DNA of 64,000 nucleotides from an uncultured Gemmatimonadota bacterium (GTDB taxonomy: Bacteria; SM23-81; DAOVCL01). The stretch covers positions 1 to 64,000 of the forward strand of contig CAZVGK010000016.1 of the NCBI GenBank assembly GCA_964626665.1, read 5' to 3'. The position numbers were made by a program, and so were the translations under genes. A model generated the notes under the pieces. It was not told where the DNA came from. It made no database searches and worked only from the letters and a program-made list of their open reading frames with translations. Each line of letters begins with the position of its first letter. Positions within the stretch are counted from its first letter, which is position 1. Shown in pieces: positions 6,232-34,627 of the stretch.

Positions 6232-6264
6232 GAAGATAAGAACAGAGGCATCCCTCAGCAAGCA

Positions 6265-15175: not shown

Positions 15176-15206
15176 GTTCTCCCCTTTCCCTCTCTTAGCT
15201 GAGGCA

Positions 15207-15235
15207 ATTATAGGGAAGGAGAAAATGATTGTCAA
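15207..15235 (-). promoter_or_regulatory. perfect sigma70 consensus promoter
   Basis: TTGACA-17 nt-TATAAT on the minus strand. Confidence 0.8.
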
Positions 15236-15784: not shown

Positions 15785-15947
15785 GAATCCCTGCCCTCAG
15801 CAAGTAACCTAAGATCTACTTAAATTGTAAGCCTGATCCTCACCTTCCTGTTCTTTCCCCCTTGTTAAAAATCTTGCATGACAGAACAGCAGGTAAACGA
15901 AGCCCAGAAAAGACCAAATCTTTTATCAACTTAGGCATTTTATCCCA

Positions 15948-16415
15948 TTATTCATCCATCTCCCCATATTGGGGAGGAGCTTCTCCCACGGACTCCACAA
16001 CAAATGGATACTTTGCCTCTTCGTTAGGGGATTCCATGCCTTTAAGTTCAACAATAAAATGCCACTCATCCCCATAATCGAAAAGAAATAACATTCTCTT
16101 CTTAATTTTGTCAAAAACCTCATTCACCTTCGTTCTTTCTACACCCTTAAACTCACTCCCCTTTCCCATATCGGCAAATATTTCATACCCTTCCTCTGCC
16201 TCTGTCCACCTCTTTATGTTGTCATAAAACCCGAAAGGATGGTCAAAAGCAAAGTCAAAACTGCCCACGATTACCTCTGCCAAGCTATACAATGTGAATC
16301 CATCTGGAATTGCCAAAATTCTATAAGGCATACCCCTAATATGACCATACCAATCGCTCAGTATTACTTTAATCAGGTATATCCTTTCACCTTGTTTTGC
16401 CCTGTGCTTTATCAT
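15948..16415 (-). CDS. plasmid pRiA4b ORF-3-like protein
   Basis: TLYSLAEVI..SFDF.FDHPFGF, FLFDYGDEWHF.VEL, YP.VVESVGEAPPQY. Confidence 0.8.
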   Translation of the reverse strand: MIKHRAKQGERIYLIKVILSDWYGHIRGMPYRILAIPDGFTLYSLAEVIVGSFDFAFDHPFGFYDNIKRWTEAEEGYEIFADMGKGSEFKGVERTKVNEVFDKIKKRMLFLFDYGDEWHFIVELKGMESPNEEAKYPFVVESVGEAPPQYGEMDE

Positions 16416-16852
16416 ATAATTACCCCCTACTGCTGATGATATTAAAATTCCACCTAACCCGTAGCGAATAAGCAGATTTGAGCGGAACGAATACCTGTCT
16501 GATAAGCAAAATGGCCGCTCCAGCTTAGACCCTTGGTTTGTCTAAAGAACCAAGTTCACACCTCGGCTTCGTGGCCTTGCCAGCGCTATTTTGCCTATCT
16601 TGCTCGGGCTTTGCGAGGCTGCAAAGCCCGCAGTGTCTAACACCCGGCGGGCATTCACTAAAGAAGTAACAGTTTAGCCAACTGAGATCTAACCATCATT
16701 ATAGATTATCCGTTAAACACCGAAACCTACTTTGCTCGCTGTGGATGTTATCATCCACAGCGCTCGTCTATAATAATTCACGAAAGTTACTGATTTTCAA
16801 GAATTTGTCTTCTACTTTCCTTGTGGATGATAACATCCACAAGGAGCCCAAG

Positions 16853-16926
16853 AGCCTGCGGTTACCGCTTGCCCAACCAAAAACGCAAATCAGTATGGTG
16901 TCCCCAAAATTATCCCCAAAAATTAT
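16853..16926. repeat. junction repeat A copy 1 (...ACCGCTTGCCCAACCAAAAACGCAAATCAGTATGGTGTCCCCAAAATT) plus micro-duplication
   Basis: direct repeats at 17138-17206 and 18775-18830. Confidence 0.9.
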
Positions 16927-17137
16927 CCATCAGGGGTTACTCTGGCTTGCCGTAGAATGCCCCTCAATGTGCCAATGGCCAGCTCACAGTGCAGAGGAAC
17001 TAAACATCCTACAGCACCTTCCGAGGTTTGCTTTTTGAGCACCACGTGGCTGCCGCATCTTCTCGAAGCCCAAGCTATGGGGGCAAAAATTGGGTGGCAA
17101 AAGTTGTGAATTTACCTCGCTTCTTTTCACTCACTAA

Positions 17138-17206
17138 AGCCTGCGGCTACCGCTTGCCCAACCAAAAACGCAAATCAGTATGGTGTCCCCAAAATTCCCC
17201 AAAATT
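17138..17206. repeat. junction repeat A copy 2 plus CCCCAAAATT duplication; truncates the type III mod gene
   Basis: near-identical to 16853-16913. Confidence 0.9.
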
Positions 17207-17495
17207 CCAGTTTGTTGGTCCAGCCTTTAATTTGTCTGCCCTGAAAATCAGTGGCGAAAAAGTCATCCATCAATCCAGCCGTCTGCTCTTCTTTGCGGGG
17301 TTCGTCGATATATTCGATGGAATGAAAGGGCAGCACCGCATTGGTTACGGTTTCGCTGCGCCCGTTCCAGAACAGGAAAACATCCTCGTCATCAGCATAG
17401 AGTTTGTAAATGTATTCTTTGGGCAGGGGTTTGCCCTGTTTGATTAAATCGTTGATTTCGTTTTTTTCGGATTCGCTCAAATCCAGTTCCGCCAT
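17207..17495 (-). pseudogene. 5' fragment of a type III restriction-modification methyltransferase (Mod)
   Basis: GKPLP..Y...LFWNG....V.NAVLPF.SIE.IDEPR...GWTNKL, breaking off at repeat A where IWGDN would normally follow. Confidence 0.75.
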
Positions 17496-17496
17496 A

Positions 17497-17706
17497 TCAT
17501 TTTCTCATCTTTTCAATTTCATCGACAATTTCATCAAAATCCGGATTGCCGAGCCATTTGTGCCTGTCTTTGGTGTAGTCGCCTTCCCCTTTTTCTGTAA
17601 ATTGCAGAAACCGTATCATTCCGACAATGCCCAAATTTTTGCTCAGTGCATCCAAACCAGCCAATCGAATCTCCTTTGGCGTCATATCTTCAACTTTCAA
17701 TGGCAT
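17497..17706 (-). CDS. putative antitoxin partner of the PIN toxin
   Basis: 69 aa, GLDAL...LG.VG.IRFLQ...G.GDYT.DR; coupled to the PIN gene. Confidence 0.7.
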   Translation of the reverse strand: MPLKVEDMTPKEIRLAGLDALSKNLGIVGMIRFLQFTEKGEGDYTKDRHKWLGNPDFDEIVDEIEKMRK

Positions 17707-18146
17707 TATATTACCTCCTTAATCCACGATAATGGATTATCTGTTTTTACATTAATTTGATCAGCGTGCTTTTTTAACTTTGCTAACAAATTGTCATCAG
17801 TTGTCAGAAAAATATCTGCTTTTCCGACTTCAGCGCTTGCCACATGAAGCGCATCATAGGTTTTCATACCAAATTTTCGTATTTCTTTTGCCCGCGATAT
17901 TATTTTTGTATTCACCCTCAGATAAAGATTCGCTTTTGCAATCAACAAAAGAACTTTGTTTTTCTTTTCAATGTCGGGAATTTTATTTATCTCATAAACA
18001 ATGGCATCGCTATTCATTAAATCCCATTTACCGGACTCAATATATTTCATAATAGTCAATATTGCTTCAGATTCAAGGTGGATTCTATCTTGCGTCTGGT
18101 CATCAAATATTCGATTTAAACAACACACATCAAGGTATATTTTCAT
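17706..18146 (-). CDS. PIN-domain (VapC-like) toxin
   Basis: MKIYLDVCCLNR.FDDQ, DALHVASA, FLTTD acidic motifs. Confidence 0.88.
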   Translation of the reverse strand: MKIYLDVCCLNRIFDDQTQDRIHLESEAILTIMKYIESGKWDLMNSDAIVYEINKIPDIEKKNKVLLLIAKANLYLRVNTKIISRAKEIRKFGMKTYDALHVASAEVGKADIFLTTDDNLLAKLKKHADQINVKTDNPLSWIKEVI

Positions 18147-18149
18147 TAA

Positions 18150-18653
18150 CTAGCCCTTTTCAATGTCAAACAGCTTAATGATTTCATCGAATCTCTTTAT
18201 GTCCTTTTCATTTCTTTCCCATAATTCCTGCTTCACATACAGCGGGAAATATTGGCGTTCATCCTGCACAGCATTGACGTCGTTGCACCAGATTTGCAGG
18301 CGCTTGATTTTGCGCACATCATCCAGATCTTCCCTCCCTTTGGTCTCGGCAATGTAAATATGCCATTCGTTTCGTTTAATCAGGAAGTCGGGGAAGAATT
18401 CATGGATATTGCCATCCTCGCCCTGATATTCGATCTTAAAGCCAAGCGACTGATAATTTTTGGCGAAAGAAACAATATCAGTGCAATCTTCCAGAAAGGC
18501 AGCAAATTCCAGTTCAAACTGGCTGTCGCCGATGATTTTATTGAATACACTCTTCTGCGGAACCAGATAGGGCTGATTATCCGCTACCAGCGGTTTGACT
18601 TTGCGCAGCGAAATGTAATTTTTAATTTGCGCCGAACCTTTATCTCTCCCTAT
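18150..18653 (-). pseudogene. 3' fragment of a type III restriction endonuclease (Res) nuclease domain; no start codon, absent from ORF track
   Basis: manual translation ...KSVFNKIIGDSQFELEFAAFLE..VSFAKNY..FKIEY..FFPDFLIK..IAETKGREDLDD..RLQIWCNDVN..; PD-(D/E)xK motif. Confidence 0.82.
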
Positions 18654-18774
18654 TCAAAACATACGTATAATCATTGTCGGGTGCTCTGCAAAAAGGTTAA
18701 AAATTAAGTAGTCACAATCTTCAGATTGCGTAAGTTGTTGAGTTATTGGTTAGTTTCCGCTTACTAAGGATCTA

Positions 18775-18830
18775 CGGCTACCGCTTGCCCAACCAAAAGC
18801 GCAAATCAGTATGGTGTCCCCAAAATTATC
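18775..18830. repeat. junction repeat A copy 3
   Basis: CGGCTACCGCTTGCCCAACCAAAAGCGCAAATCAGTATGGTGTCCCCAAAATTATC. Confidence 0.9.
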
Positions 18831-18839
18831 TACCTTTAT

Positions 18840-19220
18840 TTATTTTCCAGAAGGAGGACGATGAACGCGCCATCTTCCTTCAGATGCTACAATCATAACA
18901 GGGGGAACACCCTCCAATGCTTCTTGCTCACTTTTCAGTATTTCCCCAACCTCATATGCAATTCTTTCCACATTGATAATCTCATATCGCAGCAGGATAA
19001 CCTTACCTCGTCCATATAAAGAACCGAACTCAAGAATGCCTCCAAAATCTTTATCGCCTGTCAGCAGGATTCTGTTTTCGCTTTCTGCCCATTCAAGCAC
19101 CCGTCGGTCATCACAACCTATAAGTCCAGCTTGAACAGCAGTTACCACATCGTGCCCATACTCTATTAGCTTGAATACGATGTCCGAATGGACATTTTCA
19201 TCAGCCAGAATCCTTGACAT
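18840..19220 (-). CDS. DUF5615 PIN-like toxin
   Basis: ILADENV, GHDV, D..VL..A..E.RILLT.DKDFG. Confidence 0.85.
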   Translation of the reverse strand: MSRILADENVHSDIVFKLIEYGHDVVTAVQAGLIGCDDRRVLEWAESENRILLTGDKDFGGILEFGSLYGRGKVILLRYEIINVERIAYEVGEILKSEQEALEGVPPVMIVASEGRWRVHRPPSGK

Positions 19221-19450
19221 TACGCTTTCTCCAATAGATGTACCTCTTCTCCCTGCATCTGTTTGGCAGCAAACTTAACCGCTGCTTGTGCTCCCTCTTT
19301 AGTCAGTGTGGGATATCCCTTTAATATATCCTCAACAGTCATCCCTGAGGCTAAACACTGAAGAATTAAAGCTACAGAAATGCGTGTCCCTTTGACAATA
19401 GGTTTCCCAGAAAGGATCGCGGGGTCACAAACAATCATTTCATTAACCAT
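19220..19450 (-). CDS. DUF433 antitoxin
   Basis: DPAILSGKPIVKGTRISV..IL..LASG...EDIL..YP.L; AGGAGG before ATG at 19450. Confidence 0.88.
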   Translation of the reverse strand: MVNEMIVCDPAILSGKPIVKGTRISVALILQCLASGMTVEDILKGYPTLTKEGAQAAVKFAAKQMQGEEVHLLEKA

Positions 19451-19649
19451 TTCGGTTACCTCCTTTTTAACCACGGAACAAGGGCCCAATGTCCATTATG
19501 TCACCAATCTTCTCTCAAGTTGGAGCAAAACCCTTGTTCCTATTACTCAAACCTATAATCGGCATTTGGGACTTCGGAATGTGCATAGAGGAACCTGCTG
19601 TCGATCAATGTTGCGTAAATCTCGTTCTGCGGATCCCTTCCAACAGATC

Positions 19650-19762
19650 TTGAACTCATTTGAAAAAGGACGGCGAAAAATGTAGAATGAAGACCTGACC
19701 CCTTTTCCGCCCCCTTAGCGCCCCCTTAGGACCCCTTTTCCGCCCCCTTAGCGCCCCCTTAG
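19650..19762. repeat. junction repeat B copy 1 (...CGAAAAATGTAGAATGAAGACCTGACCCC) followed by a perfect 33-bp tandem duplication
   Basis: second copy at 25887-25947; 19697-19729 = 19730-19762. Confidence 0.9.
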
Positions 19763-19925
19763 TATAACATCAACAAATATAATAAAAGGAATTCCTATTC
19801 TCAATTTATGATTTTATGGACGTCCCCCATTTTACCCGTCCCCTCTTTGCCTTGTGGAAGGAGAGGAACTCTCTGCTTGGCATCGGTCTTTTAAAAGGTA
19901 TTAGGTGAATTTACCGCCCACCTTT

Positions 19926-20993
19926 CTATTTTCCGATCAGTAAAACTTCCTCTGAATGATCGTTACTCAAAACATATTTATAACTTTTTCGCTTTAATTC
20001 CTCTACATTTGATTTGTATTTCTTTAATAGATTTACCAATTCCTCAATAGAAGGGATACCATCTGATCTATAAGAAACAACCAGAATACTATCTGCGAAC
20101 TTCTTGATTAATCTTTCAAAAGCTGAATGAATTCGATTTTTATCAATCCACCGATTCCCCCCTCCTCTCAATTTTTTATGTTTTGTCTGGTAATCAATTA
20201 TCTTTTCCCATTCAGAATATCTAACCAATCCTTCTAAAAAATGATAAAAGCCAAAATAGTCAACTCCTACACCTCTTTTTGAAATATATGGAGTATCAAT
20301 ATAAACCAGATGAAAATCTCCTTCAATATCAAAAACATCCAGATTAAGCGCCGTATTTTGCAAACCATTAGAAAATATAGCTTGATTGGCTTCAGAAACA
20401 AATTTTCTAAAATGTGTCTCAAAGGGAGTATCCCATGTAGTTTTATTTCCAAAATTTCTTTCAACTTTAGAGAATCTTAAATAAAGATTCTTTCTATGAA
20501 AGAGATTAAATGGCCTTTTAATTATACAAGCCTGAAAAAGGGCATAGTAAGCAAGAGCCCTTTTATATAGATTCTCCAATTGGCCTATATTAGTAACAAC
20601 AACATCTATCCATTGATTTTCCTCATCTGCAAAATAAATATCATTGAAAGTATCAGAAACAAAAGTAGGATATTTAACTTCTTTGTGTTTAGTAACCAAA
20701 AAATCTACATCTTTAGAGGTCAGTTTTACAGAATCATTCTCTATCAAAGCAAGCGCAGTAAACCAATTGAATTTTAATATGTCATTGTAAGTAACCTGTT
20801 TCCCTTTTTGTTTAAACATATAAGCAACACACCCTGTTCCACCAAATGCATCAAGAGCAGTATGGAATTGTATATCTTTGATACCTTCCCATATCCAATC
20901 TACTATCTTTAACTTGCTCCCCTGGTACCGCGTAGAAGGAAATACAGGGATTTTTTCAATTAAGGCCATCTGTTTTGAATTAACTTTGCTCAT
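19926..20993 (-). CDS. alpha-class N6-adenine DNA methyltransferase
   Basis: RYQGSK, LDAFGGTG (motif I) N-terminal; YIDTPY (motif IV) C-terminal. Confidence 0.88.
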   Translation of the reverse strand: MSKVNSKQMALIEKIPVFPSTRYQGSKLKIVDWIWEGIKDIQFHTALDAFGGTGCVAYMFKQKGKQVTYNDILKFNWFTALALIENDSVKLTSKDVDFLVTKHKEVKYPTFVSDTFNDIYFADEENQWIDVVVTNIGQLENLYKRALAYYALFQACIIKRPFNLFHRKNLYLRFSKVERNFGNKTTWDTPFETHFRKFVSEANQAIFSNGLQNTALNLDVFDIEGDFHLVYIDTPYISKRGVGVDYFGFYHFLEGLVRYSEWEKIIDYQTKHKKLRGGGNRWIDKNRIHSAFERLIKKFADSILVVSYRSDGIPSIEELVNLLKKYKSNVEELKRKSYKYVLSNDHSEEVLLIGK

Positions 20994-20996
20994 CCT

Positions 20997-21818
20997 TCAC
21001 GCCTTTTTCAATTTCTTATATTGAAAATACTCCTCAAGGTTTTTATAAGGAGCTCCTTTTAGGTCTACGGCCCTGGCCATATCTTTTGTCAGATAATACA
21101 TCCAATAGTCATCAAATACCCCTTCCCCAAGTTTTGCAAAAGGTCCGTTCCCATTTATCAACTCATCAATCTTCACAACTGAACCTATATTCTTTGTATT
21201 ACCACTCCCTGGCCTACCCGTAGCAATTTGGTATTTCTCCTGCACAAAGAAGGTAAAATCCTTTACAACCGAGGTTATTTCTTGAAGGTCCTCAAGACGA
21301 TAAACCTTTCTTTCGTCTAAATGTTCATCTGTACGGGAATAGACTATCCCCAACACTAAGTGTCCAACATACTCCTCATAAGGGAAGGTGATATTCTTCT
21401 TGCTCTTGCGATCACGGAAATAACCTGTAAATGCCCCGAGTGTCATGCCGTTTACTCTCTTCCCGTCCTTTCGATAGGTACTTTTTATATCTAAAGCATA
21501 CTTATTGTTAGCAAGATCAATAAAGGTCATGTCGGGGTAAAAATTCTGTTCTTTGCATAACACCATTTTGTAATTATTCTCTTGGGCAAACTGTGAAATC
21601 TTTGGGAAGAGGAGAATCTCCATTATTTTTGAGACAACTTTAGTATCAACAGAAATCGTATAGATATTTCTTGCAATATCAATAAACCCTTTCACAATCC
21701 AGTCTCCCTCATCGGTTGACATAGCCGAATTGAATCGTTCAACATCCTTTAAAAGCCGACTACGAAACTCTTGCTTTAATCTCCGTTTTTCTCCTAAATT
21801 TGCCATATTTCCCCTCAA
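20997..21818 (-). CDS. EcoRV-family type II restriction endonuclease
   Basis: DTKVVSKIME, QNFYPD, LDIKSTY, TLG.FT.YFR, NITFPY..Y..H..LG..Y.R, GSGNTKNIGS match EcoRV motifs. Confidence 0.85.
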   Translation of the reverse strand: MRGNMANLGEKRRLKQEFRSRLLKDVERFNSAMSTDEGDWIVKGFIDIARNIYTISVDTKVVSKIMEILLFPKISQFAQENNYKMVLCKEQNFYPDMTFIDLANNKYALDIKSTYRKDGKRVNGMTLGAFTGYFRDRKSKKNITFPYEEYVGHLVLGIVYSRTDEHLDERKVYRLEDLQEITSVVKDFTFFVQEKYQIATGRPGSGNTKNIGSVVKIDELINGNGPFAKLGEGVFDDYWMYYLTKDMARAVDLKGAPYKNLEEYFQYKKLKKA

Positions 21819-22659
21819 TCCTATCTTTGATAAGCTGACAATAATTTGGGTCTATCTCGATCATGATACACTTTCGACCTAACCCTTGAGCAACAAAGCC
21901 AGTAGTCCCTGAACCCGCAAATGGATCAAGAATCAAATCTCCTTCATCTGAGCCCGCCAATATTGCGTATTCTAAAATAATCGGCTGCTTGGTAGCAGGA
22001 TGTCTGAATGGATTCTTTCTTGCCCAATATTCCCAAAGATTTTTCATCTGAACCCCGCCGTTCAATTTTTTCATCGCCCAGTAGTTAAACTTAGTTTTAC
22101 CATTGAAATTCTTCTTAGCCCAAAGCATCGTTTCTGTAACTGCCCTAAAACAAGATCCTCTAAAATTAGGTGGAGCATTTATCTTATGAAGGATTATATC
22201 ATTGAGGATCTTAAATCCTAGATCCTGCAGCACAACATTTACTACTCCAATACTGTGATATGTGCCCGTTATCCAGATAGTAGAACCATCTTTTAGGATC
22301 CTCTGGGCTTCTTTTAACCAAGTATGGTGAAACTCAAACTGATATTGAAGAGATTTTGAATAAGCAAACTTTGCCTTTTGAGTATCAAATGTCTCTGCGT
22401 GTCCGTCATTACGCTTAATAATCAATCCAGATTGATTCCCGAAATAAGGGGGATCGGCAAAAATCATGTCAATGCAACGATCAGGAACCCTTTTGAGAAG
22501 ATGCAACGCATTCCCTTTAAAGAGTTTAATCTTTTTTTCAGGACTATAATAAAACGGAGCAAGTTCCTTCTCTCCATATTTTGCTTGTTCCTCAGCACAA
22601 AATATTTTATCTATGCCCCTGAAAATATCAGACATCTTATACATCGTCTTATCTCTCAC
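21760..22659 (-). CDS. beta-class amino (N6A/N4C) DNA methyltransferase
   Basis: IFADPPY N-terminal; HPATK and ILDPFAGSGTT C-terminal. Confidence 0.9.
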   Translation of the reverse strand: MRDKTMYKMSDIFRGIDKIFCAEEQAKYGEKELAPFYYSPEKKIKLFKGNALHLLKRVPDRCIDMIFADPPYFGNQSGLIIKRNDGHAETFDTQKAKFAYSKSLQYQFEFHHTWLKEAQRILKDGSTIWITGTYHSIGVVNVVLQDLGFKILNDIILHKINAPPNFRGSCFRAVTETMLWAKKNFNGKTKFNYWAMKKLNGGVQMKNLWEYWARKNPFRHPATKQPIILEYAILAGSDEGDLILDPFAGSGTTGFVAQGLGRKCIMIEIDPNYCQLIKDRIEGKYGKFRRKTEIKARVS

Positions 22660-22783
22660 AGTTTTTCCCTTTTATTAAAAACAGCAAGTAATTATTCTAT
22701 CTAATGGGGCGGCAGGTAAGCAAAGTCCCGACTTGTTGGGATTTGTAACAGCATAGCCGCTTACTGCCCGATAAGCTGACTAG

Positions 22784-23113
22784 TATTCCATTTAGCCTGG
22801 TGGCTTGCATCGGTTCTCAAGCTCGGTTACACATCAGCTTCGTGGCGTAGTCAGCGCCATTTCGCTTATCGTTTCTAACATAAAAAGATATTTGTGAAGT
22901 AAAAATCTGAATAAGCGCCAAAAGACACAAACCTTTTATTGAAAGACGTTTATCTGGCAACTCAAAGGTAAATCAGCAAAAGGATCTCCGTCTGGCCTGA
23001 GCTTGCCTGGACATCTATACGTCAATCGATTTGCTTTTGAGCCGAAAAGTTAGCCACTTTTGGGAAGGGGAGACACTTCTTGCTTGACTTTAATCTTTTG
23101 AAAGATGTTAAGC
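22784..23113. repeat. 330-bp non-coding repeat C copy 1, ending in GTTAAGC (attC-core-like)
   Basis: aligns without gaps to 25951-26280; partial homologues at 19851-19906 and ~16452-16640. Confidence 0.9.
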
Positions 23114-23128
23114 AACGTGTGGCTATAT

Positions 23129-23405
23129 TTAAGACGATTTAAAATTATCTCCCTTCTCACTTCTCCTATTCAATTTCCCATACTTTTCATTTTCTTCTCG
23201 CAAGTAAAAGCTCTTTTGACCACTCCGTTCAATCCAGTCTCCAACACAAAATTTATTGAAGCGGAATTTTGACCCTTCTAAGTACTCATCAATAATGTCA
23301 GTAGCTATCCAGCGTCGTTTGAGACGTTCGCAAACCTCTCCCGTCACGTTCGAGCCAGCAAATGGGTCAACTACAAGGTCACCTTCATCAGTTAGCATTT
23401 TACGG
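23129..23405 (-). pseudogene. C-terminal fragment of a beta-class (probably N4-cytosine) DNA methyltransferase
   Basis: [28 protein letters not shown]; catalytic SPPY/DPPY half missing. Confidence 0.8.
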
Positions 23406-24281
23406 TTAGAGAATATGTGATCCATTCTTAGATGCAAGACGCCAGACATAGCCATCAAACGTGATTAAACCTCTCTTTTTCAAGCTCTGTTGAGCATTTC
23501 GAACATGATGTTTCCACGCTTTCCCGAATCTTTCACCATGGATAATTAACTCTATCGAGTCATCGCAGAGATCAGGCAATAGTCGTTGTATGTTTGGATG
23601 TAGGTGCCGGGTTGGTAGTGGCTCGTGCGATAAGACGTACAATATGGCTTCTGAGAAAAGGGAATGGGCTGACCTTGCACCAACGAGTGCTTCAGCAAAT
23701 CTGACATTCGCACTTTTCAGTTTTTCATCAAACCGCCTTTTAGCTGAAGCAGCGGCTGACCGTTGAACATTACGATATTCAGCAGATATTTCTTCAGCGA
23801 CTTGGGATAGCTCGTCGATTTGCGCTCCTGAGAGAATGTTGCCAACCCGTGCGTACGCATCCATGTCAGCTTTGATGCGTTGCACCAGAATAGGATCTCG
23901 GATTCCAACACCATACTCGTAATTTGAATTAAGGCCAGAGTAAGTAAGATTAGCGGAACCTACCACAGCTAGTGAAGTGTCAAAAATATAAACCTTTGCG
24001 TGAAAATGCGGAAGGGTTATCATTTCTAAATTTCTCATCAGGTTTTGGAATATCTTTAGTGCATCCATATCGAGAGAACCGCTCAGAACACTTCCAGCTC
24101 TCAAATCAGTTATAACACGCACAATAAGTTCTTTGCCCGATTCCTCAGAAAGCAGACGGTCGCAGACATATTCTGCCTCGGATCTCTTAATAAATGGCGT
24201 GGCAATTATAAGTTCACTTCTCGCGTGATCTAAGGCTCTCTCGAACTGAGATCTCCATGGACTTCTATATAATTCGATCAT
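23406..24281 (-). CDS. phospholipase-D-family (single HKD) nuclease with C-terminal Mrr_N-like winged helix
   Basis: HAKVYIFD...VGSANLT..GL..NYE; C-terminal [18 protein letters not shown]....VWRL. Confidence 0.8.
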
Positions 24282-24287
24282 AGTAAT

Positions 24288-25655
24288 TCAATTAGCTCGC
24301 ATTAGCACGAATGGAATTTGACTTTCTAACACTCTTCGGAACAATTTGGCTCCATTTGCAACGTTCAAAATTTCCTTCCGTCCGATAAGTATTACTTGCT
24401 TTCCATATTCATTACGGACCAGTTCAGCATACTTTTTAGCTGCTTCGCTGATTCTTCCCGTACCAATAATCACCGCCACTTGTGAGCCAAAGTGTATCAT
24501 CAGCCCCACCTCTTTGGCTACATCGTCAAGGGAGACAAATTTGGTGTTTTTGCATTGTATTTGCCATCGAGAGAATATTAGGCGTGCTCCCTCAAAGATT
24601 AAATCAACCTCTGCACCACCTGTGACTTGACCACGAAGACGAGTTGCTACATACTTTAAATCAATTAATCTCATCAGATAGAATGCAAGAGCTTCAAGAG
24701 CTAACCCCTTTACATATCTATCAGCCGACGACAACTCCTTCAATATTTCGGTGAGGGGCTTCCTCAACATAGGGCGAAGATCAGGATGTGCTTGGCTTTG
24801 AAGACATTCAATAAGGGGAGTGATAAGCTCGGATTTCATCTTATCAGTAAGCCTTACCTGGAAAGGCTTGGCGCCTCGCCCAATCTTTTTAGTTCCTCTT
24901 TCCAGATATATATAGCCAGCTTTTTCAATAGGATAGAGCACGGTTTTAGGCAGATTCTTCTCATCGAATTTCACCCCGTATGTTGTACTTGCCAGTTTCT
25001 CCACCTCATTTGACCAGTAAGGTCCGGTTTCTCCCATATTTGCCAGGGTTTTCAGGAAGGCCTTTTGCTCGATAGTAAGCATAGAAAGTTCATCTATTAT
25101 ATCTTCGGACACACCGATAATTTCTTCGAGACGACTGACATCTATTTGCCAATCAGTGGAGGTAACTACTCCTGCCTTCTCAAGCCACAGGCGCATTATG
25201 CTTGGGTGTTTCCCTCCCCGAGGAAAGTAAATGCCTCTTTCCTGAAGCCATTCGCGTAATTTTCGCAGATCTACTCTCTCGCCACGTGCCTGCATATCTT
25301 GAACCGTTTGCACAACTATTAATCCTTTGAGATTTAATAAAATATGTTGTGCAAAAACTTGATATATCTTTTCAGGTGTCCTTTTAAGAGAAAGGAGTCT
25401 CTTCCCAAAATCAGTTAAGTTACCATCGCGGTGAAGAACACCATAGGCTATCATTCCTAATTTACAGTTGTTTGCAAGCTTTCGGCGATTATATTCACTT
25501 GTTGGGTGCGAGTCAAAATACTCGTGTCGTATTGAGTTTTCAAGAGCATGCCAATCTCCACTGTGTCCTTCTGCCATTTCCAAAACACGAATAAGGTCAA
25601 TCTGGCTTGGTGAGAATTCACTTCCAAAGGGAAGATCACTTTTTACCATATTCAA
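24288..25655 (-). CDS. restriction endonuclease with C-terminal Mrr-like PD-(D/E)xK domain
   Basis: KGLALE..A..L...GGAEVDLI...WQIQCKN (QxK variant), V.KEVG. Confidence 0.75.
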   Translation of the reverse strand: MNMVKSDLPFGSEFSPSQIDLIRVLEMAEGHSGDWHALENSIRHEYFDSHPTSEYNRRKLANNCKLGMIAYGVLHRDGNLTDFGKRLLSLKRTPEKIYQVFAQHILLNLKGLIVVQTVQDMQARGERVDLRKLREWLQERGIYFPRGGKHPSIMRLWLEKAGVVTSTDWQIDVSRLEEIIGVSEDIIDELSMLTIEQKAFLKTLANMGETGPYWSNEVEKLASTTYGVKFDEKNLPKTVLYPIEKAGYIYLERGTKKIGRGAKPFQVRLTDKMKSELITPLIECLQSQAHPDLRPMLRKPLTEILKELSSADRYVKGLALEALAFYLMRLIDLKYVATRLRGQVTGGAEVDLIFEGARLIFSRWQIQCKNTKFVSLDDVAKEVGLMIHFGSQVAVIIGTGRISEAAKKYAELVRNEYGKQVILIGRKEILNVANGAKLFRRVLESQIPFVLMRAN

Positions 25656-25886
25656 ATCCCCCGATTATTATATGTTTTAACCTGTATTCTGGAAAGCCAT
25701 AAATTGCTCTATAAGTAGCTGAAATCATTAGAGAGGCCCTCTTGGTTTTTATGAACTACAATCTCCCGCAAAGTTCAAATATATCGCTATTTCAATAAGT
25801 TACAAAACCACCTTCCAGAATACGAATTACATGTTAATGCTGCAATTCGTATGGTATCCCCTCAAAAACAGAAATTGAATACGGTA

Positions 25887-25947
25887 TTGAACCCATTTGA
25901 AAAAGGGCTACGAAAAATGTAGAATGAAGACCTGACCCTTTTTTCGC
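25887..25947. repeat. junction repeat B copy 2
   Basis: TTGAACCCATTTGAAAAAGGGCTACGAAAAATGTAGAATGAAGACCTGACCC matches 19650-19710. Confidence 0.9.
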
Positions 25948-25950
25948 TCT

Positions 25951-26280
25951 TACTCCATTTAGCCTGGTGGCTTATATCGGTTCTCAAGCTCGGTTACACA
26001 TCAGCTTCATGGCATAGTCAGCGCCATTTCGCTTATCGTTTCTAACATAAAAAGATATTTGTGAAGTAAAAATCTGAATAAGCGCCAAAAGACACAAACC
26101 TTTTATTGAAAGACGTTTATCTGGCAACTCAAAGGTAAATCAGCAAAAAGATCTCCGTCTGGCCTGAGCTCATCTGGACATCTGTGCGCCAATCGATTTG
26201 CTTTTGAGGCGAAAAGTTAGCCACTTTTCGGAAGGGAAGACACCTCTTGCTTGACTTAGGCCTTTTAAAAAGTGTTAGGC
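25951..26280. repeat. 330-bp non-coding repeat C copy 2, ending in GTTAGGC
   Basis: near-identical to 22784-23113. Confidence 0.9.
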
Positions 26281-26296
26281 GAACCTCTTCGTTTCC

Positions 26297-27844
26297 TTAA
26301 TATGCTTTTATTGTAACTATGAAAGGTACTATCTTTTTAACTTGATCTTCCAAAGAGTCATTTGTCAGGCTGCTTTTTCTGTGGATGATCTCATCGCCCT
26401 CTGGTAACATTGAAACTATGTTTTTCAGATAATCCACTTTGATTGCAAAATTTACATTTTGGGGGATTATATCCAATTTTTCGTAAAAGTATTTCACATT
26501 AAGGGTGGCGATAACTACTCCCACAATTTCACCTCTACTATTGAAAAGAGGTCCGCCACTGTTACCCGGTTGAACGGGATTGCTAATTTGTAATAGACGT
26601 GGGTCATCAGATATTCCATAAAGTGAGTTGATGACTCCCTTGGATAACTTCGGCGATTTTCCTAATATTTCACCGAGTGGGTAACCTATTGTGAAAACAT
26701 CCTCCCCAACATTTGCATCAGAGGAATTCGCAAACCCGAAGGGGATGGTCAAACTGAATTGCTTGGAGAAATTCACATCCTCTACTCTCAGCAGCACTAT
26801 ATCATTATTTATGTCTTTCAAGGCAACTTTTGTTTGATAAGTTTCATTCTCGTAAGGGAAGGACACCTCAATCTTTTTTGAATCGCTAATTACGTGATAA
26901 TTGGTTACTACCAATCCACTTTGACTTAAAAGAAAACCACTCCCCGAAACAGGAAAGTGCCGACTTTCAGGTGTGACATCTGTACCATAACCCGATTCCA
27001 GATCTTTTGGATAATTTTTTATGAAGGACATTTGCAATGGAGAATTGTCTGGATTTCTAAGTGTCATTGTCAACAGTCCACCCTCACTAATTCTTGAAGT
27101 AGTGCCTTGGTTGGATTTATCTGCCATAAAGTATGTAGTAGCATAAACATTTGGATAGGCACTTGCGACAAACTCCATTTTCACGTCACCCAGCTTCCAG
27201 AGAGGTTTTTCAGTGTTCATAACAGTCGCCACAAAATCCCTTTTGTTCGATAGAGTATCCTTAAATATTCCGACAGTATAGCTATTGTCCGTTGCGGTCC
27301 AGATACCTTCTAATGGGTCAAGGCTGTGCAGATTCGAATCGAAGTATTTGACTAAATCATCTTTGGTCTTCTGGATATCCTCCCACTCAGGATATTGAAC
27401 GTATCCTTCGGAGAAACCAGTGTATTCCTTTGCAATTCCCGAAAACGCCTGTCTTATCGCGCCCACCACATCACCACGTCTACCCCACCCCATTCCATAC
27501 TCACCTTTACCAGTGAAAACATTCTTATGCATATAATAGTCGTCTAATTGAATATGGACGATAGCAGCCGGCACTGAGACAGTATAGCTGTATCTACAAA
27601 GGAGCACTTTGTTCATTTCTCTCTCCGGAAGGCTCTTTATCGTAAATTCATCTAAGACAACAAAACCTTCTTGAGAAAACAACGAAGAGAGTTCCATTTG
27701 CGTTTCATAGACGTCAAACCGCAATGGATTGATGACAACATATTTATAGGCATTTAGACTTGAACCTGGCTTAACCAAATGTTGGCTTGACACACAGCCG
27801 GCAAGGAGAACCAACAGTAAACCAATTAAAGTTAATCGTTTCAT
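26297..27844 (-). CDS. lipoprotein with C-terminal trypsin-like (HtrA-type, no PDZ) serine protease
   Basis: lipobox LLAGC; GSGF, TNYHV, DIVLL, GNSGGPL triad; GGAGG before ATG 27844. Confidence 0.88.
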   Translation of the reverse strand: MKRLTLIGLLLVLLAGCVSSQHLVKPGSSLNAYKYVVINPLRFDVYETQMELSSLFSQEGFVVLDEFTIKSLPEREMNKVLLCRYSYTVSVPAAIVHIQLDDYYMHKNVFTGKGEYGMGWGRRGDVVGAIRQAFSGIAKEYTGFSEGYVQYPEWEDIQKTKDDLVKYFDSNLHSLDPLEGIWTATDNSYTVGIFKDTLSNKRDFVATVMNTEKPLWKLGDVKMEFVASAYPNVYATTYFMADKSNQGTTSRISEGGLLTMTLRNPDNSPLQMSFIKNYPKDLESGYGTDVTPESRHFPVSGSGFLLSQSGLVVTNYHVISDSKKIEVSFPYENETYQTKVALKDINNDIVLLRVEDVNFSKQFSLTIPFGFANSSDANVGEDVFTIGYPLGEILGKSPKLSKGVINSLYGISDDPRLLQISNPVQPGNSGGPLFNSRGEIVGVVIATLNVKYFYEKLDIIPQNVNFAIKVDYLKNIVSMLPEGDEIIHRKSSLTNDSLEDQVKKIVPFIVTIKAY

Positions 27845-27921
27845 AGTATCCTCCAATTAAAGCAAAATTTCGCCCAATGGGTAGACAATCTAGTAACATT
27901 TCCTTGGATGCAAACCCTATT

Positions 27922-28046
27922 TAATGTCTGTCCGAAAATACCCCTATTCTTGTCATTCCGGTGATCTTTAAGCCGGAATCTACTTGAAATTAGCAATGGA
28001 TTCCCGCTAATGGCGTGCGGGAATGACAAATTCGGACAGACACTAT
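27922..28046. mobile_element. small MITE-like palindrome (TGTCTGTCCGAA...TTCGGACAGACA) enclosing GTCATTCC...GGAATGAC hairpins
   Basis: nested inverted repeats seen directly. Confidence 0.65.
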
Positions 28047-28129
28047 TTAGCCTGTAGAATATATATCTCCGCGAGAATGCGGCAGCGGGCTACGGGAAGT
28101 TCACCCGTTAAGGCCTGTGCAACTTAAGT

Positions 28130-29053
28130 TTAGATAGAGCTTTTAGGTAGATATTCTTGAAACCATTTGGGCAGTGCCCGCCAAAAAGGGCCAAATAAAT
28201 CCCAATGTTTTCCTATATGCTCCACATATTTTGCTAAGAGATTCCTAAAATCATTCTCAGATATAGGAAATGCAGATAGCAAGTCGGGATCTCTATTTTT
28301 GAATTTTATTACAATGTCCTCAACTCGATTAAAATAATCTCTCGCAAAATTGGGATAAAAAGGAAATCCCCACCCCCAATCGTTCTCGCCTAAAATCTCA
28401 ATTTTAACGCATTGTAGAAAATTAAATTGACACAAAGAATCAACATAACTGTCATCTACAAGTGAGAAATACCTCTCTCTTATTTGCTCATCCTCTGAAA
28501 GTTTCTTCCGTGCATCTTCAAAAAAGTTTGTTAGATTACCCGCACCCCATCCGTTTTCATACCAAGGGTAATAGAATATTGAGCGATATAATTTTTCGCC
28601 GTCACTTTTCCTGAGCAAGACAACTCGTTCATCACCTAATAATGATACAAAATCATATACATTGTCTACTACAGCAATTGAACCCACAATGAGCATTCTG
28701 ACTGTAGCTTCATATCCTGGCAACAAATGACCCAAGTGTTCTGTTTCGGACGAATAGTTAAATCCAATGTTCTTACTGTAACGTTGATGACGTTGATAGT
28801 ATGTTGATAGGTTAATGACATTTCTGAAGAAGGCTGCGACCTCTTTATATAGATTATCTCTTTTCCGCTCAATTATCAAGGCTGTTAAATCTGTGATCTT
28901 ATTTAAAGTAGGGATGAGCACTCCTGATTTAAATGCCCTGACTTCATCTTTTGAGAGTGTATTTTCAGTATACTTTTGAAGTAACCTTTCCCAATGGATT
29001 TTGATTTCTTTATTGAGGGTTCTTATCTTTTCTACAAAATCGTAACTACTCAT
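28130..29053 (-). CDS. hypothetical protein translationally coupled to the Schlafen/AlbA_2 gene
   Basis: 307-aa ORF; 4-bp ATGA overlap with 29050..29745. Confidence 0.8.
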   Translation of the reverse strand: MSSYDFVEKIRTLNKEIKIHWERLLQKYTENTLSKDEVRAFKSGVLIPTLNKITDLTALIIERKRDNLYKEVAAFFRNVINLSTYYQRHQRYSKNIGFNYSSETEHLGHLLPGYEATVRMLIVGSIAVVDNVYDFVSLLGDERVVLLRKSDGEKLYRSIFYYPWYENGWGAGNLTNFFEDARKKLSEDEQIRERYFSLVDDSYVDSLCQFNFLQCVKIEILGENDWGWGFPFYPNFARDYFNRVEDIVIKFKNRDPDLLSAFPISENDFRNLLAKYVEHIGKHWDLFGPFWRALPKWFQEYLPKSSI

Positions 29054-29745
29054 TTGCTTAACTCCTTAAATGCTTTTTTAAAAAATACTTTTCTCTCTAA
29101 ATCGAACAGTTCTTCGCTTTCCTTTTCCTTCCAGTAAATATTTCTTAACTTGAAAGCTTTCTCATAATATCTCTCTAATAATTCTTCCCAAGAATCAGTA
29201 TCTATAGGCTTAGTCGCCGAATGACGTCTGACATATATAGTGCCAGCGTGCAAGCTGGGTTTATCTTTACTTCCATCTCTATAGCTGTAATTTCCATTTA
29301 TGATGTGAGGTCTACTCCTAAATTCAGGAATATAGATCAAACCTACTCCGATAGATTTGCCTTTGTTATTCTCGAATTTGCCAACATATGTGTGCAAATT
29401 AATAGGTGGTGATATGAATTTTGATAATGTTTGCGAAATTTTAGTTGGGTCTAAATCACTTTGCGTTTTTTCGTTGATTCCGATGACCTCACGAGCCTTA
29501 GGTTCTATACCAATGACAATATATCCTCCACCGACATTGGAGAATGCCGAAACATCTTTACTAAACTCTTGGCATGTCTTTTTATTAGAAGCACTAAATG
29601 TGGATTTATAGTCTACCCTGTTAGTTTCCCTCTTAAAGCTAACTAGCAAAGATAGGTTTTTATCATCAAGAACACCTACTTGTAATCCTCGAGGGTAATC
29701 TATATCTTCATTTTTTTGAAAATCTCTACTTGCAAAATCATTCAT
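29050..29745 (-). CDS. Schlafen/AlbA_2 domain protein
   Basis: RETNRVDYK (E-x4-D-x-K), KDVSAFSNVGGGYIVIGI, IYVRR. Confidence 0.85.
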   Translation of the reverse strand: MNDFASRDFQKNEDIDYPRGLQVGVLDDKNLSLLVSFKRETNRVDYKSTFSASNKKTCQEFSKDVSAFSNVGGGYIVIGIEPKAREVIGINEKTQSDLDPTKISQTLSKFISPPINLHTYVGKFENNKGKSIGVGLIYIPEFRSRPHIINGNYSYRDGSKDKPSLHAGTIYVRRHSATKPIDTDSWEELLERYYEKAFKLRNIYWKEKESEELFDLERKVFFKKAFKELSK

Positions 29746-29996
29746 AAAAATGTCCTCTTATGTTCTTAAGGCGATACCCTAACAGGTTGGCGGATAAGCG
29801 GAATCTTGACTTGTGAAGACTTAGGAGGAGAAATTGGAAAACAGTTCGATGAATTAAATGAGCTCAAATCTATTTAAGCACTCTGTCTTTCAGTCACGGC
29901 GTGAGATGAGCTTCGCAGTAAGAAAATGAAAAGAACCAGACGAGTCGTCTTATCTGGCACAATGCTCTAGACATATCCGCTGGGAGAATGGTGCCT

Positions 29997-32425
29997 CTAC
30001 CCCTCCGCTACCACCCTGGCTACATCGGTGACCTTGTCGCCCGGGGCGAGGTTGATGAGCTTCACTCCCTGGGAGGCGCGGCCACACCTCCTGATCCCTC
30101 CCACCTTTATCCTGATGATCACCCCATTTACCGTGGCCAGCATTATCTCATCCTTCTCCACCACCTCCATAATGGAGACCACCGGGCCATTCTTGGCCGT
30201 TATCTTGGCAGAAACTATCCCCTTCCCCCCTCGGTTGGTTACCCGATAGTCGGAGATCCCGGTTCGCTTGCCGAAGCCATTCTCGGTGACCACTAAAAGA
30301 TCGGCCTCCCTGCGCACCACCACCATCCCCACGACCCAATCGTCCTTTCCCAACTGCATCCCCCTTACCCCACGGGCAGATCTCCCCATACTCCTTACCT
30401 TGGCCTCTGGGAACCTCACCGCCTTGCCCCACCTGCTTCCCAAGATCACCTCTGCCTTTCCATCGGTGAGCTCCGCTCCAATCAATTGGTCATCTCCATC
30501 GATGGAGGCAGCTCTCACCCCTCCCCGGCGGAGATGGGCGAAGTCGCTCAGCGCAACCTTCTTGATCGTCCCCCTCATAGTGGCTAAGATGACGAATCTT
30601 CCGGGATCAAAATCGCCCACCGCTACCGAGGCGGCAACCTTCTCCTCCTTGCCTACCTGCAGGAGGTTGACAATGGGCCTACCCTTGGCTAACCTTCCCC
30701 CGCTGGGTAATTGATAGACCTTCACCCCATAGCACCTCCCCAAGGTGGTGAAGAAAAGAAGCCAGGAATGGGTGGAGGCAATGAATAGATGTTCGACGAA
30801 ATCCTCCTCCTTTGTGCCCATACCCATAAGGCCCTTTCCTCCCCTGTGCTGCCGGCGGTAGCTGGAGATGGGCAACCTCTTTATATACCCGCTGTGGGAT
30901 ATGGTAATGGCCATATCCTCCTCGGCAATGAGGTCCTCCATCTTGAATTCCTCTTCCTCCTCCACGATCTCCGTGCGCCGCTCATCCCCATACTTCTGAC
31001 CCAAACTGAGGAGCTCCTCCCTGATTATCCCCATCCTCTGGGCCCTGTTCTCCAATATCCCCTTTAGCTTGGCGATAAGCTTTATCTTCTCTAAATACTC
31101 CTCCTCTATCTTCTCCCTCTCCAGCCCGGTGAGTCGGGCCAATCTCATATCCAAGACAGCCTGAGCCTGCAGTTCGGATAGGCCGAACCTCTTCATTAGG
31201 GCGGCCTTAGCGAGCTGCGGATTGCGAGACCCCTTGATGATGGCCACTACCTCGTCGATATTCTCCACGGCAACCTTTAGGCCCTCTAAAATGTGGGCCC
31301 TCTCCTCGGCCTTCCTCAGCTCGAACTTCGTCCTCCTGGTAATTACCTCGTGGCGGTGGGCCAGAAACAGACCCAGTATCTCCTTAAGGCTCATTACTTT
31401 CGGTTGGCCAGCGGAGAGACAGAGCAAAATGATGCCAAAGGTTACCTGTAGCTGGGTATGTTTGTAAAGCTGGTTCAAGATCACCTCTGGCTGGGCATCC
31501 CTCTTCAGTTCCACCACTATCCTCATCCCCTCCCGATCAGACTCATCCCGCAGTTCGGCCATCCCTTCCACGAGCTTATCTCTGGCCAGCTTAGCTATAT
31601 CCTCTAAGAGGTGGGTCTTGTTCACCTGATAGGGGATCTCGGAGATAATCAGGCTTACCCTGCCAGTTTCTAACCTCTCTATACTTGCCCTCCCCCTCAG
31701 GGTTATCTTCCCCTTACCGGTGCGGTAGGCCTGGTTGATCCCCCCAGTCCCCGTTATTATGCCCCCGGTGGGAAAATCAGGTCCCTGGATGTATTCCCTC
31801 AGGGCAGCGGCCTCTAGCTGGGGGTCATCGATGAGGGCAACCAGGCCCCCAATGACCTCTGTAAGGTTGTGAGGGGGAATGTTGGTAGCCATACCCACGG
31901 CAATGCCCGAGGAACCATTGCAGAGAAGATTGGGAAATTTCCCCGGCAGGACTACCGGTTCCTTCCTGGTGCTATCGTAGTTGGGGATGAAGTCCACCGT
32001 ATCCTTCTCCAAATCGGCCAACATCTCCATGGCAACGGGGGAGAGCCGGGCCTCGGTGTATCTCATTGCCGCCGGCGCGTCTCCATCTACGGAACCAAAG
32101 TTTCCCTGCCCCTCCACCAGGGGATACCTCATATTGAACTCCTGGGCCATCCTCACCAGGGTGGGATAGATGACCTGCTCCCCATGGGGATGGTAGTTTC
32201 CAGAGGTATCGCCGGCTATCTTCGCACATTTGCGGAAGGAGCTGTTCGGGGTGAGCTTGAGGTCGTTCATCGCCACCAAGATGCGGCGGTGGGAGGGCTT
32301 GAGCCCATCCCGCAGATCGGGAAGGGCCCGGGAGACTATCACGCTCATCGAATAATCTATATAGGAGGATTTCATCTCCTCCTCTATGTTTACCGAAACT
32401 ATCCTCTCCCTCAGCTCGTGTGCCA

Positions 32426-32426
<1 letters not shown>
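29997..32426 (-). CDS. gyrA: DNA gyrase subunit A
   Basis: RALPD.RDGLKP, YHPHG, AAMRYTE, GyrA-box QHRGGKG. Confidence 0.98.

Positions 32427-34627
<2,201 letters not shown>

Follow-up and report, generated by a model that had tools for sequence, protein, structure and literature searches.

Defence islands are a known feature of bacterial genomes, and the way in which modules enter and leave those that carry no integrase is mostly unexplained. Several described arrangements come close to the island studied here, a block of restriction-modification (RM), toxin-antitoxin (TA) and other defence-type genes directly downstream of gyrA in a 64,000-nt stretch of DNA from an uncultured Gemmatimonadota bacterium (GenBank assembly GCA_964626665.1, contig CAZVGK010000016.1, positions 1 to 64,000), hereafter called the window. 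In integrons, the variable part of the attC site is 20–100 nt long, and a cluster of attC sites lacking an integrase (CALIN) comprises at least 2 attC sites (within 4 kb), as given in the accessible text of PMC4889954. The rAID-1 arrays of Bacteroidales are described as integron-like in the accessible text of bioRxiv 10.1101/471110, and combine co-oriented accessory genes, skewed GC content and repetitive intergenic sequences with a conserved XerD-family recombinase that heads the array at one of its ends, their cargo being immunity genes. RM units have been found inserted with long direct repeats of 46 to ~420 bp, for example 417/423 bp and 384/412 bp, and without a mobility gene; in the available portion of that study the repeat is the duplicated host target, as proven by an empty site in another strain (PMC2853133). 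Finally, the accessible part of PMC3934969 presents an integron that is bracketed by two copies of a MITE (miniature inverted-repeat transposable element) of 439 bp.

The module junctions in the island downstream of gyrA are non-random: a conserved spacer of ~0.4 kb with sharp common ends, which we call repeat A, separates RM, TA and defence genes that are unrelated to each other, in this array as well as in one other contig. An earlier reading of the bare sequence, the original prediction, had described an integrase-less cassette-like array with integron-type core heptamers at the unit ends and starts, and had proposed either a CALIN with atypically long sites or a distinct gene-capture system. 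As a whole this observation was confirmed in part: the heptamers and the cargo held, and the strict core sequences and the spacer lengths did not. The array is not an integron cassette array, and the integron reading is rejected. We see about an even chance that the block is a horizontally acquired, partly decayed defence and TA island of ~14 kb, inserted directly after the gyrA terminator, with modules that are exchanged by recombination between island-specific repeats.

The GC content of the block between ~15.9 and 29.9 kb is 32–44% in the profile, and the island has an overall GC content of 40%, compared to ~51–54% in the flanks; because of this composition, we consider the block to be of foreign origin. 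The fall in GC begins directly below a terminator-like hairpin 3′ of gyrA (29938..29950, minus strand), where AT-rich foreign DNA would start, and persists down to ~15.9 kb. The gyrA gene itself (29997..32426, minus strand), downstream of which the island lies, encodes 809 aa and matches Pfam DNA_topoisoIV (2.1e-159) and DNA_gyraseA_C; gyrB is located at 32426-34330 on the same strand. The GC profile, the hairpin and the Pfam match thus confirmed that an AT-rich block directly follows gyrA. Likewise, the claim that all genes of the block are on the minus strand holds for every open reading frame (ORF) with a family match, and the proposed RM, TA and defence cargo was supported by Pfam, PADLOC and searches of stop-to-stop frames. 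The content amounts to eight or so modules: an EcoRV-like type II RM unit, an Mrr-like and PLD nuclease pair, an SLFN/AlbA_2 pair, a protease, three TA-type units and a PRiA4-like gene. As predicted, several of these units are multi-gene, and modules hold up to three genes.

Of the family A copies in the window, one is whole, one has 330 nt and two are partial; a whole element is ~413 nt long. The only whole copy, A1 (22692..23117, minus strand, ~413–426 nt), begins with GCTTAAC 15 nt after a stop codon, and ATTAGATAGAAT forms the end of its tail, at a distance of 46 nt from the start codon that follows. A2 (25951..26284, minus strand) consists of the first 330 nt of A without the tail and starts with GCCTAAC, 16 nt after the stop codon of the protease gene; over 330 nt it is 92.7% identical to positions 22784-23113 of A1. 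A3 (16445..16667, minus strand) is a diverged 3′ half with the tail, and ends in GTTAGGTGGAAT, 43 nt before the start of the PRiA4 gene. It was detected by nhmmer with E=5.8e-45, using a profile in which A3 itself was a training row, and its core is ~80% identical by blastn. A4 (19847..19910, minus strand) contains only the 5′ module (~58–64 nt), starts with ACCTAAT 19 nt after the stop codon of a D12-class methyltransferase gene, and was found by nhmmer with E=3.5e-8 when it was left out of the profile. In addition, a weak likeness to the 3′ tail, named tail0 (29771..29833, minus strand), ends in GTTAGGG (29783), 38 nt before the first cargo gene; it is identical to the A1 tail at 19 of 30 positions and was not recovered when left out of the profile. 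Searches of the window with nhmmer yielded no further diverged copies of the 5′ module or the tail beyond the known ones. In the 64-kb window, copies of A and of two shorter families, B and C, occur nowhere but in the island, and all A copies are oriented like the genes.

The 5′ boundary of A is sharp. In A1, A2, A4 and a homologous locus on another contig, L021, which adjoin four unrelated genes, 22–28 of 30 bases are identical inside the element, compared to 3–8 of 20 outside, and all four copies of the 5′ module were recovered in leave-one-out profile searches, with E values from 3.5e-8 to 1.4e-18. Conservation of the tail is weaker: three pairs share 8 of the 10 core bases, and leave-one-out searches recovered one of the four tails. 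Read by eye, TTC-N2-CTAAY is present at three of the four 5′ ends (A1 reads GTTGCTTAAC) and RTTAG-N2-3-GAA in three of the four tails, which together have the look of an inverted repeat, short and imperfect. In the window as a whole, TTC-N2-3-CTAAY was counted 12 times, versus 8.3 ± 2.7 times in shuffled sequences, and the tails in the window were absent from the top matches of an ungapped matrix made from the 5′ ends. The strict integron consensus is present in two of the four 5′ ends and, with tail0 counted, in two of the four tail-type ends. Three units have an A tail upstream, namely the EcoRV RM unit, the PRiA4 gene and the SIR2-TPR gene of L021, and two of these have a proven 5′ module downstream. 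The tail may also carry a promoter for the downstream module; that of A1 reads TTGCTT-18-TAGAAT, a site that was not listed by the sigma-70 promoter scan. The idea that A is an invertible promoter switch was dropped, since the ends of A1 match each other poorly.

The heptamers that formed the basis of the original prediction are largely, as judged from these alignments, the conserved first and last bases of repeat A. All 11 (5 'end' and 6 'start' heptamers) are present on the minus strand where they had been reported, the end motifs 11–19 nt past stop codons, as claimed, and the start motifs ~26–46 nt before the likely start codons. The conserved 5′ module opens with the end heptamers at 19906, 23113 and 26280, as found in the leave-one-out profile searches, and the repeat A family closes with the start heptamers at 22705 and 16458. 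Using nhmmer profiles, including leave-one-out profiles, no homology to repeat A was found in the window at 15936, 28113, 19490, 25681 and 27878. The likeness of the 11 heptamers to integron cores is limited to strict RYYYAAC in two of the five ends and strict GTTRRRY in one of the six starts, and the DNA between adjacent cores, said to be 240–410 bp, measured 242, 606, 415 and 423 nt. At the left island edge (15900..15947, minus strand), a short stretch after the heptamer GCCTAAG (15936) bears an unproven resemblance to the A 5′ module, which the nhmmer profile did not detect, and host-type repeats begin by 15790.

The frequency of these motifs at gene boundaries depends on how strictly they are defined. 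The loosened end class VCYTAAB, which occurs 18 times on the island minus strand, is found 8–22 nt after the stop codon in 5 of the 16 island genes, compared to 0.29 at random positions (0 of 2000 draws reached 5), and at no stop among the window's 34 host genes. Sites of the loose start class, RTTRRRN, are frequent, with 7.4 per kb; they precede 9 of 16 island starts versus 3.3 expected (P=0.002), and 5 of the 34 host genes. Strict motifs were present at 2 of 16 island ends (P=0.026) and 1 of 16 island starts (P=0.39). The figures for the loosened classes exaggerate the independence of the sites: both classes were fitted after seeing the data, and a single repeat accounts for three of the five end sites. 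When the start heptamer of a unit was compared with the reverse complement of its own end heptamer, 27 of 35 bases matched, versus 15 of 28 for pairs from the same spacer, and 20 of 720 permutations reached 27; this comparison has n=5 and uses motifs that had been picked with the integron model in mind.

Outside the window, a collection of genome contigs was scanned with a 19-base core of A, which gave 21 loci. Twenty of these are similar to A in pattern only, two with matches of 24–26 nt over the pattern, and were taken as chance. The sole homologous locus, L021, is on a 3,332-nt contig of a metagenome-assembled genome (MAG) labelled uncultured Eubacteriales, the binning of which is unverified. 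Two parts of L021 are homologous to A, and they are ordered and oriented as in the window. In the sense of the genes, L021 contains a nucleotidyltransferase fragment, an MqsA-like zinc-ribbon ORF, the A 3′ half with tail, a 587-aa SIR2_2-TPR protein gene and the A 5′ module. The tail ends in GTTAGATGAAAC, 40 nt before the likely start codon of the SIR2_2-TPR gene, and the 5′ module is ~80% identical to A2 over 122 nt and runs on as diverged A to the next gene. No other sequence is shared between L021 and the window. This comparison comes nearest to the check proposed with the original prediction: the gene content of L021 differs with breakpoints at the ends of A and not elsewhere, in a single case that is not necessarily the same locus. 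A distant-mode blastn search with A1 gave no match to plasmids and phages. At the protein level, one homologue was found among 5.8 billion proteins, P0001, a 72-aa protein on a 909-nt JGI contig with 54% identity to an 81-codon frame in L021 (E=3.4e-11), and a profile search found no further homologues.

The differences between A1 and A2 are unevenly distributed: 19 of the 24 are located in the first 131 nt, and are followed by 134 identical nucleotides. This pattern is a mosaic, such as recombination or gene conversion would leave. Modules are also bracketed by repeats, with A2 and A1 forming 330-nt direct repeats around module 3, B copies around modules 3 and 4, and C copies around module 6 and a HicA fragment. 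The repeats occur as whole, truncated and mosaic copies, all oriented like the genes; only one of the six A copies is whole, and the others are broken off at different internal points. Decay is apparent from a methyltransferase C-terminal fragment, a restriction endonuclease fragment without a start, an N-terminal gene fragment that ends inside the C2 repeat, and the HicA fragment. Because modules are bracketed by direct repeats, copies are mosaic or truncated and gene fragments are many, we favour, at roughly even probability, an exchange of modules by recombination between island-specific repeats in a decaying, acquired defence island. Repeats A, B and C would be the sites where modules are joined, and recombination between copies, most simply homologous recombination, would insert, duplicate, swap or delete the intervening DNA. 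Its substrates might be circular or transformed DNA carrying a copy of A, or direct repeats inside the array, and the A tail might supply the promoter of the downstream module.

Several observations weigh against this explanation. Homologous recombination alone leaves unexplained why A has sharp common ends beside unrelated genes in two genomes, and why, in three of the four copies, these ends come 15–19 nt after a stop codon. The complementarity of heptamers belonging to the same unit (27/35; 20/720 permutations) is a prediction of a site-specific cassette model, and the ends of A resemble a short imperfect inverted repeat. Moreover, the basis consists of one array and L021, no recombination event was observed, and homologues outside the window amount to a single DNA homologue, the 3.3-kb MAG contig, and one hint at the protein level, P0001.

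The sharp common ends and the heptamer complementarity would fit a new site-specific cassette system, which we regard as possible, with a tentative, minor share of the probability. Here, modules would start at TTAGRT and end with an A-type site that opens with RCYTAAY. It is likewise a tentative suggestion that cutting, and with it the capture or exchange of modules, would be the work of a recombinase with its gene elsewhere, acting on inverse cores of the integron kind; the site would be a long, non-hairpin element of ~0.4 kb and not an attC. Multi-gene defence modules bounded by a ~0.4-kb element with the ends TTC-RCYTAAY ... RTTAGRT-GAA would then form an integron or rAID-1 analogue beside gyrA in an uncultured lineage, a proposal that we put forward with little confidence. 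Its cores are like those of a real attC (GTCTAAC...GTTAGAT in aadA1 of R100), all copies are co-oriented with the genes, tails upstream and proven 5′ modules downstream are found around the same units as listed above, and rAID-1 arrays set a precedent for cassette arrays that are not integrons. However, the 64 kb contain no recombinase gene or remnant, a single A copy in six is whole and the truncation points vary, and several of the supposed cassettes are gene fragments. The poor recovery of the tails in leave-one-out searches also speaks against such a system, as does the inverted repeat at the ends, which is not significant (12 versus 8.3 ± 2.7) and whose tail half the ungapped matrix failed to rank; the heptamer complementarity, in turn, comes from five units and from motifs selected under an integron model.

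A rather unlikely explanation is that A, in this case a non-autonomous element of the MITE type, colonised the spacers of the island, with pairs of copies able to carry the genes between them like a composite transposon; C might be a further such element. A is probably non-coding and ~413 nt long, its ends look like short imperfect terminal inverted repeats, and there are several copies and a homologue in an unrelated contig. The C copies are 89–96% identical, one of them supplying the stop codon of a cut gene, and the 439-bp MITE at both ends of an integron, as presented in the accessible part of PMC3934969, is a precedent. Against this, all copies have one orientation and are found only in the island within the window, their spacing from stop codons is regular, and five of the six are partial. 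No direct repeat that could be a target-site duplication flanks A1, the whole copy, the inverted repeat is without statistical support, and the window contains no transposase.

We consider it improbable that repeat A represents a gene, or the derivative of one, for a small protein or a non-coding RNA, such as a regulator, that accompanies defence modules on their travels; its ends would in that case be those of the gene or its transcript. The A-like element of L021 (3042-3287) is open for 81 codons and ends 8 nt before the next gene, and P0001 is its one 72-aa homologue. The indels between copies are in frame (42 nt; 13 residues), three third-position changes keep HRCPDELR, as read by eye and without a script, and in both B copies a promoter-like site faces A on the plus strand. 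In the window copies, however, the frame is closed after ~30 codons and the differences between A1 and A2 in it are non-synonymous, and only 4 of the 20 mismatches between the two ORFs are conservative. Reading A1 and A2 in six frames revealed stop codons in every frame and substitutions without a third-position bias, and A has no Pfam domain in any frame and no NCBIfam match. Searches of Rfam, at the gathering threshold for the window and at E<=1 for the island, returned only a tRNA-Met and two chance-level matches, and none for A. RNA and DNA folds of A1 on both strands have z-scores of −1.0 to −1.6 without pairing of the ends, and RNAalifold on four A 3′ halves gave −14 kcal/mol with a covariation term of +1, which is no support for a consensus fold. 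The profile search yielded nothing more, and A is probably not coding.

The remaining explanation, a classical integron remnant in the form of a CALIN with unusually long attC sites and an IntI encoded elsewhere, is highly improbable, as the defining attC hairpin, geometry, size and integrase were not found. Co-oriented genes, RM and TA cargo, AAC/GTT-type heptamers near some gene ends and the complementarity of heptamers of the same unit had spoken for it. Minimum-energy folding of the four spacers, as delimited in the original prediction, as single-stranded DNA of either strand gave no end-to-end pairing for any of the 7 heptamer bases, in contrast to the aadA1 attC of plasmid R100, used as a control, in which 6 of 7 bases pair on both strands. 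The duplex energies of the 32-nt spacer ends were within the background of random pairs of island segments (fractions 0.29, 0.40, 0.32 and 0.095). A scan for the arrangement R''-UCS-L''...L'-UCS-R' (UCS, unpaired central spacer) with fixed AAC/GTT triplets, for which we used our own script with 30 shuffles as background, resulted in 3 candidates for distances of 50–200 nt, versus 2.4 ± 1.6 in the shuffles, and 6 for 200–650 nt, versus 8.0 ± 2.4. Every candidate falls within a coding sequence, away from gene boundaries and from the predicted cores, whereas the same scan on 3 kb of In2 found the single real attC and nothing else. The geometry scan thus found no attC site where a CALIN has at least two, and the spacers of 242–606 nt and the low counts of strict consensus cores (2/5 and 1/6) depart from integrons as well, as do modules of 2–3 genes with, as it seems, promoter-like sites of their own. 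The prediction had also noted that the window holds no intI, and this was confirmed: no tyrosine recombinase or integrase, no transposase and no remnants of these were found in the 71 window ORFs (27, 30 and 14), and the 144 stop-to-stop frames that cover the non-coding DNA from 13.2 to 30 kb contained no recombinase or mobility remnants either.

The modules themselves, all on the minus strand, are described here from gyrA to the left edge. Module 1 (28130..29745) consists of an SLFN/AlbA_2 protein gene (29050-29745; Pfam SLFN_AlbA_2 6e-19; PADLOC PDC-S50 1.4e-11) and a gene for a 307-aa protein (28130-29053) that matches no Pfam or NCBIfam family. Module 2 (26297..27856) encodes a trypsin/HtrA-like serine protease with a hydrophobic N-terminus (Pfam Trypsin_2 8.7e-27; partial match to NCBIfam degP/HtrA), the translation of which probably starts at the ATG at 27844. 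Module 3 (23129..25655) contains genes for a protein with an Mrr_cat nuclease domain (24288-25655) and a PLD-family nuclease (23406-24281), as well as an N6/N4 DNA methyltransferase gene of which only the C-terminal part is present (23129-23458); these assignments are based on Pfam, on DrmC-like and methyltransferase matches in PADLOC and on a partial NCBIfam match to DrmC. Module 4 (19926..22659) is a type II RM unit with an N6_N4 methyltransferase (21760-22659), an EcoRV-family endonuclease (20997-21818) and a D12-class methyltransferase (19926-20993). Its Pfam matches are Endonuc-EcoRV (5.7e-107), N6_N4_Mtase (1.1e-45) and MethyltransfD12 (2.2e-16), and PADLOC assigns MTase_II/REase_II.

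Module 5 (18840..19489) is a DUF433/DUF5615 pair (Pfam DUF433 1e-21, DUF5615 1.8e-18), a putative TA-type, PIN-like pair, and the DUF433 gene probably starts with the ATG at 19449. Module 6 (17175..18653) comprises an RE_endonuc-domain fragment (18153-18653), a PIN protein gene (17706-18146), its 69-aa partner (17497-17706) and an N-terminal gene fragment (17175-17495). The restriction endonuclease fragment lacks a start codon (Pfam RE_endonuc 1.6e-5; PIN 4.7e-6), and the stop codon of the N-terminal fragment is supplied by repeat copy C2. This N-terminal fragment has no family match, and reading of the peptide alone suggests a putative methyltransferase N-terminus. The order in module 6, a restriction endonuclease C-terminal fragment, an intact PIN pair and a putative methyltransferase N-terminal fragment, resembles a circularly permuted mod-res unit, such as might arise if a circle or a tandem duplication opened up within the RM genes. 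A HicA toxin gene fragment (16926..17111; Pfam HicA_toxin 2.1e-8, profile positions 17–57 of 58) is located between C2 and C3, and the last island gene, module 8 (15948..16415), encodes the PRiA4_ORF3-like protein (Pfam 9.7e-15).

The spacers contain further elements on the minus strand. Family B has two copies of 61 nt, at 25887..25947 and 19650..19710, which are 90% identical, the second one overlapping a series of six 11-nt periodic repeats. Both B copies carry a sigma-70-like site on the plus strand, TTGAAA-17-TAGAAT (10/12 matches), at 19660-19688 and 25897-25925. It faces A2 in one case, and the 11-nt repeats and A4 in the other, and hence is directed toward the 3′ end of the upstream gene, antisense to the genes, so that it could give rise to an antisense or spacer transcript. 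The six 11-nt units (19697-19762) adjoin B, are arranged head to tail, and are of two kinds, GACCCCTTTTC and CGCCCCCTTAG on the plus strand; they are iteron-like, with one helical turn per unit. Family C comprises three copies of 59–74 nt with 89–96% identity: C1 (18754..18830), which is 89–95% identical to the other two, C2 (17124..17204), which is 95.7% identical to C3 over 69 nt, and C3 (16853..16921). C opens with AATTTTGGGGACACCA, and a stuttered AATTTTGGGGA precedes two of the copies. As C contains GGGGACACCA, which is like the 3′ end of a tRNA, a tRNA 3′ fragment was considered and dropped, since ARAGORN reported no tRNA there and no T-arm could be drawn.

The spacer between modules 1 and 2 (27857..28129, minus strand) holds the predicted heptamers CCTTAAC (28113) and ATTGGGC (27878) and has no homology to the A modules. 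It also contains, before the protease gene, a nested palindromic element of ~134 nt (27917-28050), with outer arms at 27917-27936 and 28031-28050 and inner arms at 27950-27980 and 27999-28029, which could be a small MITE or a structured element. Another palindrome, of 28–30 nt and of the TGTGGATG.TA.CATCCACA type, has two copies in an island spacer (16719-16862) and a third in host DNA at 48 kb; those at 16818-16847 and 48048-48077 are 96.7% identical.

In the host DNA around the island, repeats of the repetitive extragenic palindromic (REP) or MITE kind, hairpins of GGGACAGACC...GGTCTGTCCC that are 82–96% alike, are located at 13576-13710, 15651-15790, 5375-5401 and 58249-58310, and two of these host-type repeats are inverted around 13.7–15.65 kb, at the left edge of the island. 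A metallo-beta-lactamase-fold gene in this region (14192-14869) is split in two frames (14606-14869 and 14192-14494) and adjoins a short Secretin_N-like ORF (14954-15334). This gene is probably a pseudogene, which suggests that decay also occurs just outside the low-GC block. An 890-aa ORF (2447-5119) with a sorting tail of the type IX secretion system (T9SS) type contains ~10 tandem DNA repeats of ~165–170 nt that are 75–81% alike. Proteins of the host in this window carry T9SS-type C-terminal sorting domains, which presumably place the host in the same superphylum as the Bacteroidales. Furthermore, intergenic repeats are common to 57618-58472 and 5558-6546, in the form of 64–91-nt pieces with 80–92% identity, and a 170-nt tandem-like pair is present at 57677-58137.

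What these spacers mean depends on their origin. If they are recombination substrates, whether homologous or site-specific, they provide a testable handle on the assembly of defence islands and a sequence tag to find further arrays; if they are leftover duplications only, the locus is an ordinary RM/TA graveyard.

Compared to the systems outlined above, the island is like an integron or a CALIN in its co-oriented genes with short non-coding flanks, its TA, RM and defence cargo, a conserved element after several modules, AAC/GTT-type heptamers at the ends and the absence of a nearby integrase. It differs from them in that the element is 242–606 nt long, has no end-to-end fold and no L boxes, and is conserved in sequence and not in structure; its copies are mostly truncated or mosaic, and the modules contain up to three genes, several of which are fragments. 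With rAID-1, the island shares co-oriented accessory genes, a skewed GC content (40% versus 51–54%) and repetitive intergenic sequences, here families A, B and C; unlike rAID-1, the 64 kb contain no XerD-family recombinase, and the cargo is made up of RM, TA and other defence-type genes.

With MITE-bracketed cargo, the island has in common a non-coding element of ~0.4 kb with inverted-repeat-like ends, two direct copies of which surround genes, and it deviates by the absence of a target-site duplication, the single orientation, the mostly partial copies and their confinement to the island within the window. In comparison with the RM units of PMC2853133, as far as the accessible text describes them, A recurs at other junctions and in another genome around other cargo, and its copies are 92.7% identical in an uneven manner. 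The likeness to these units is found in module 3, where a low-GC set of Mrr-like, PLD and methyltransferase-fragment genes lies between 330-nt direct repeats without a mobility gene. This 3.2-kb unit has the characteristics by which such RM inserts are recognised, being smaller than 20 kb, with R and M homologues, direct repeats of more than 30 bp and no mobility genes, its modification gene being present as a fragment only.

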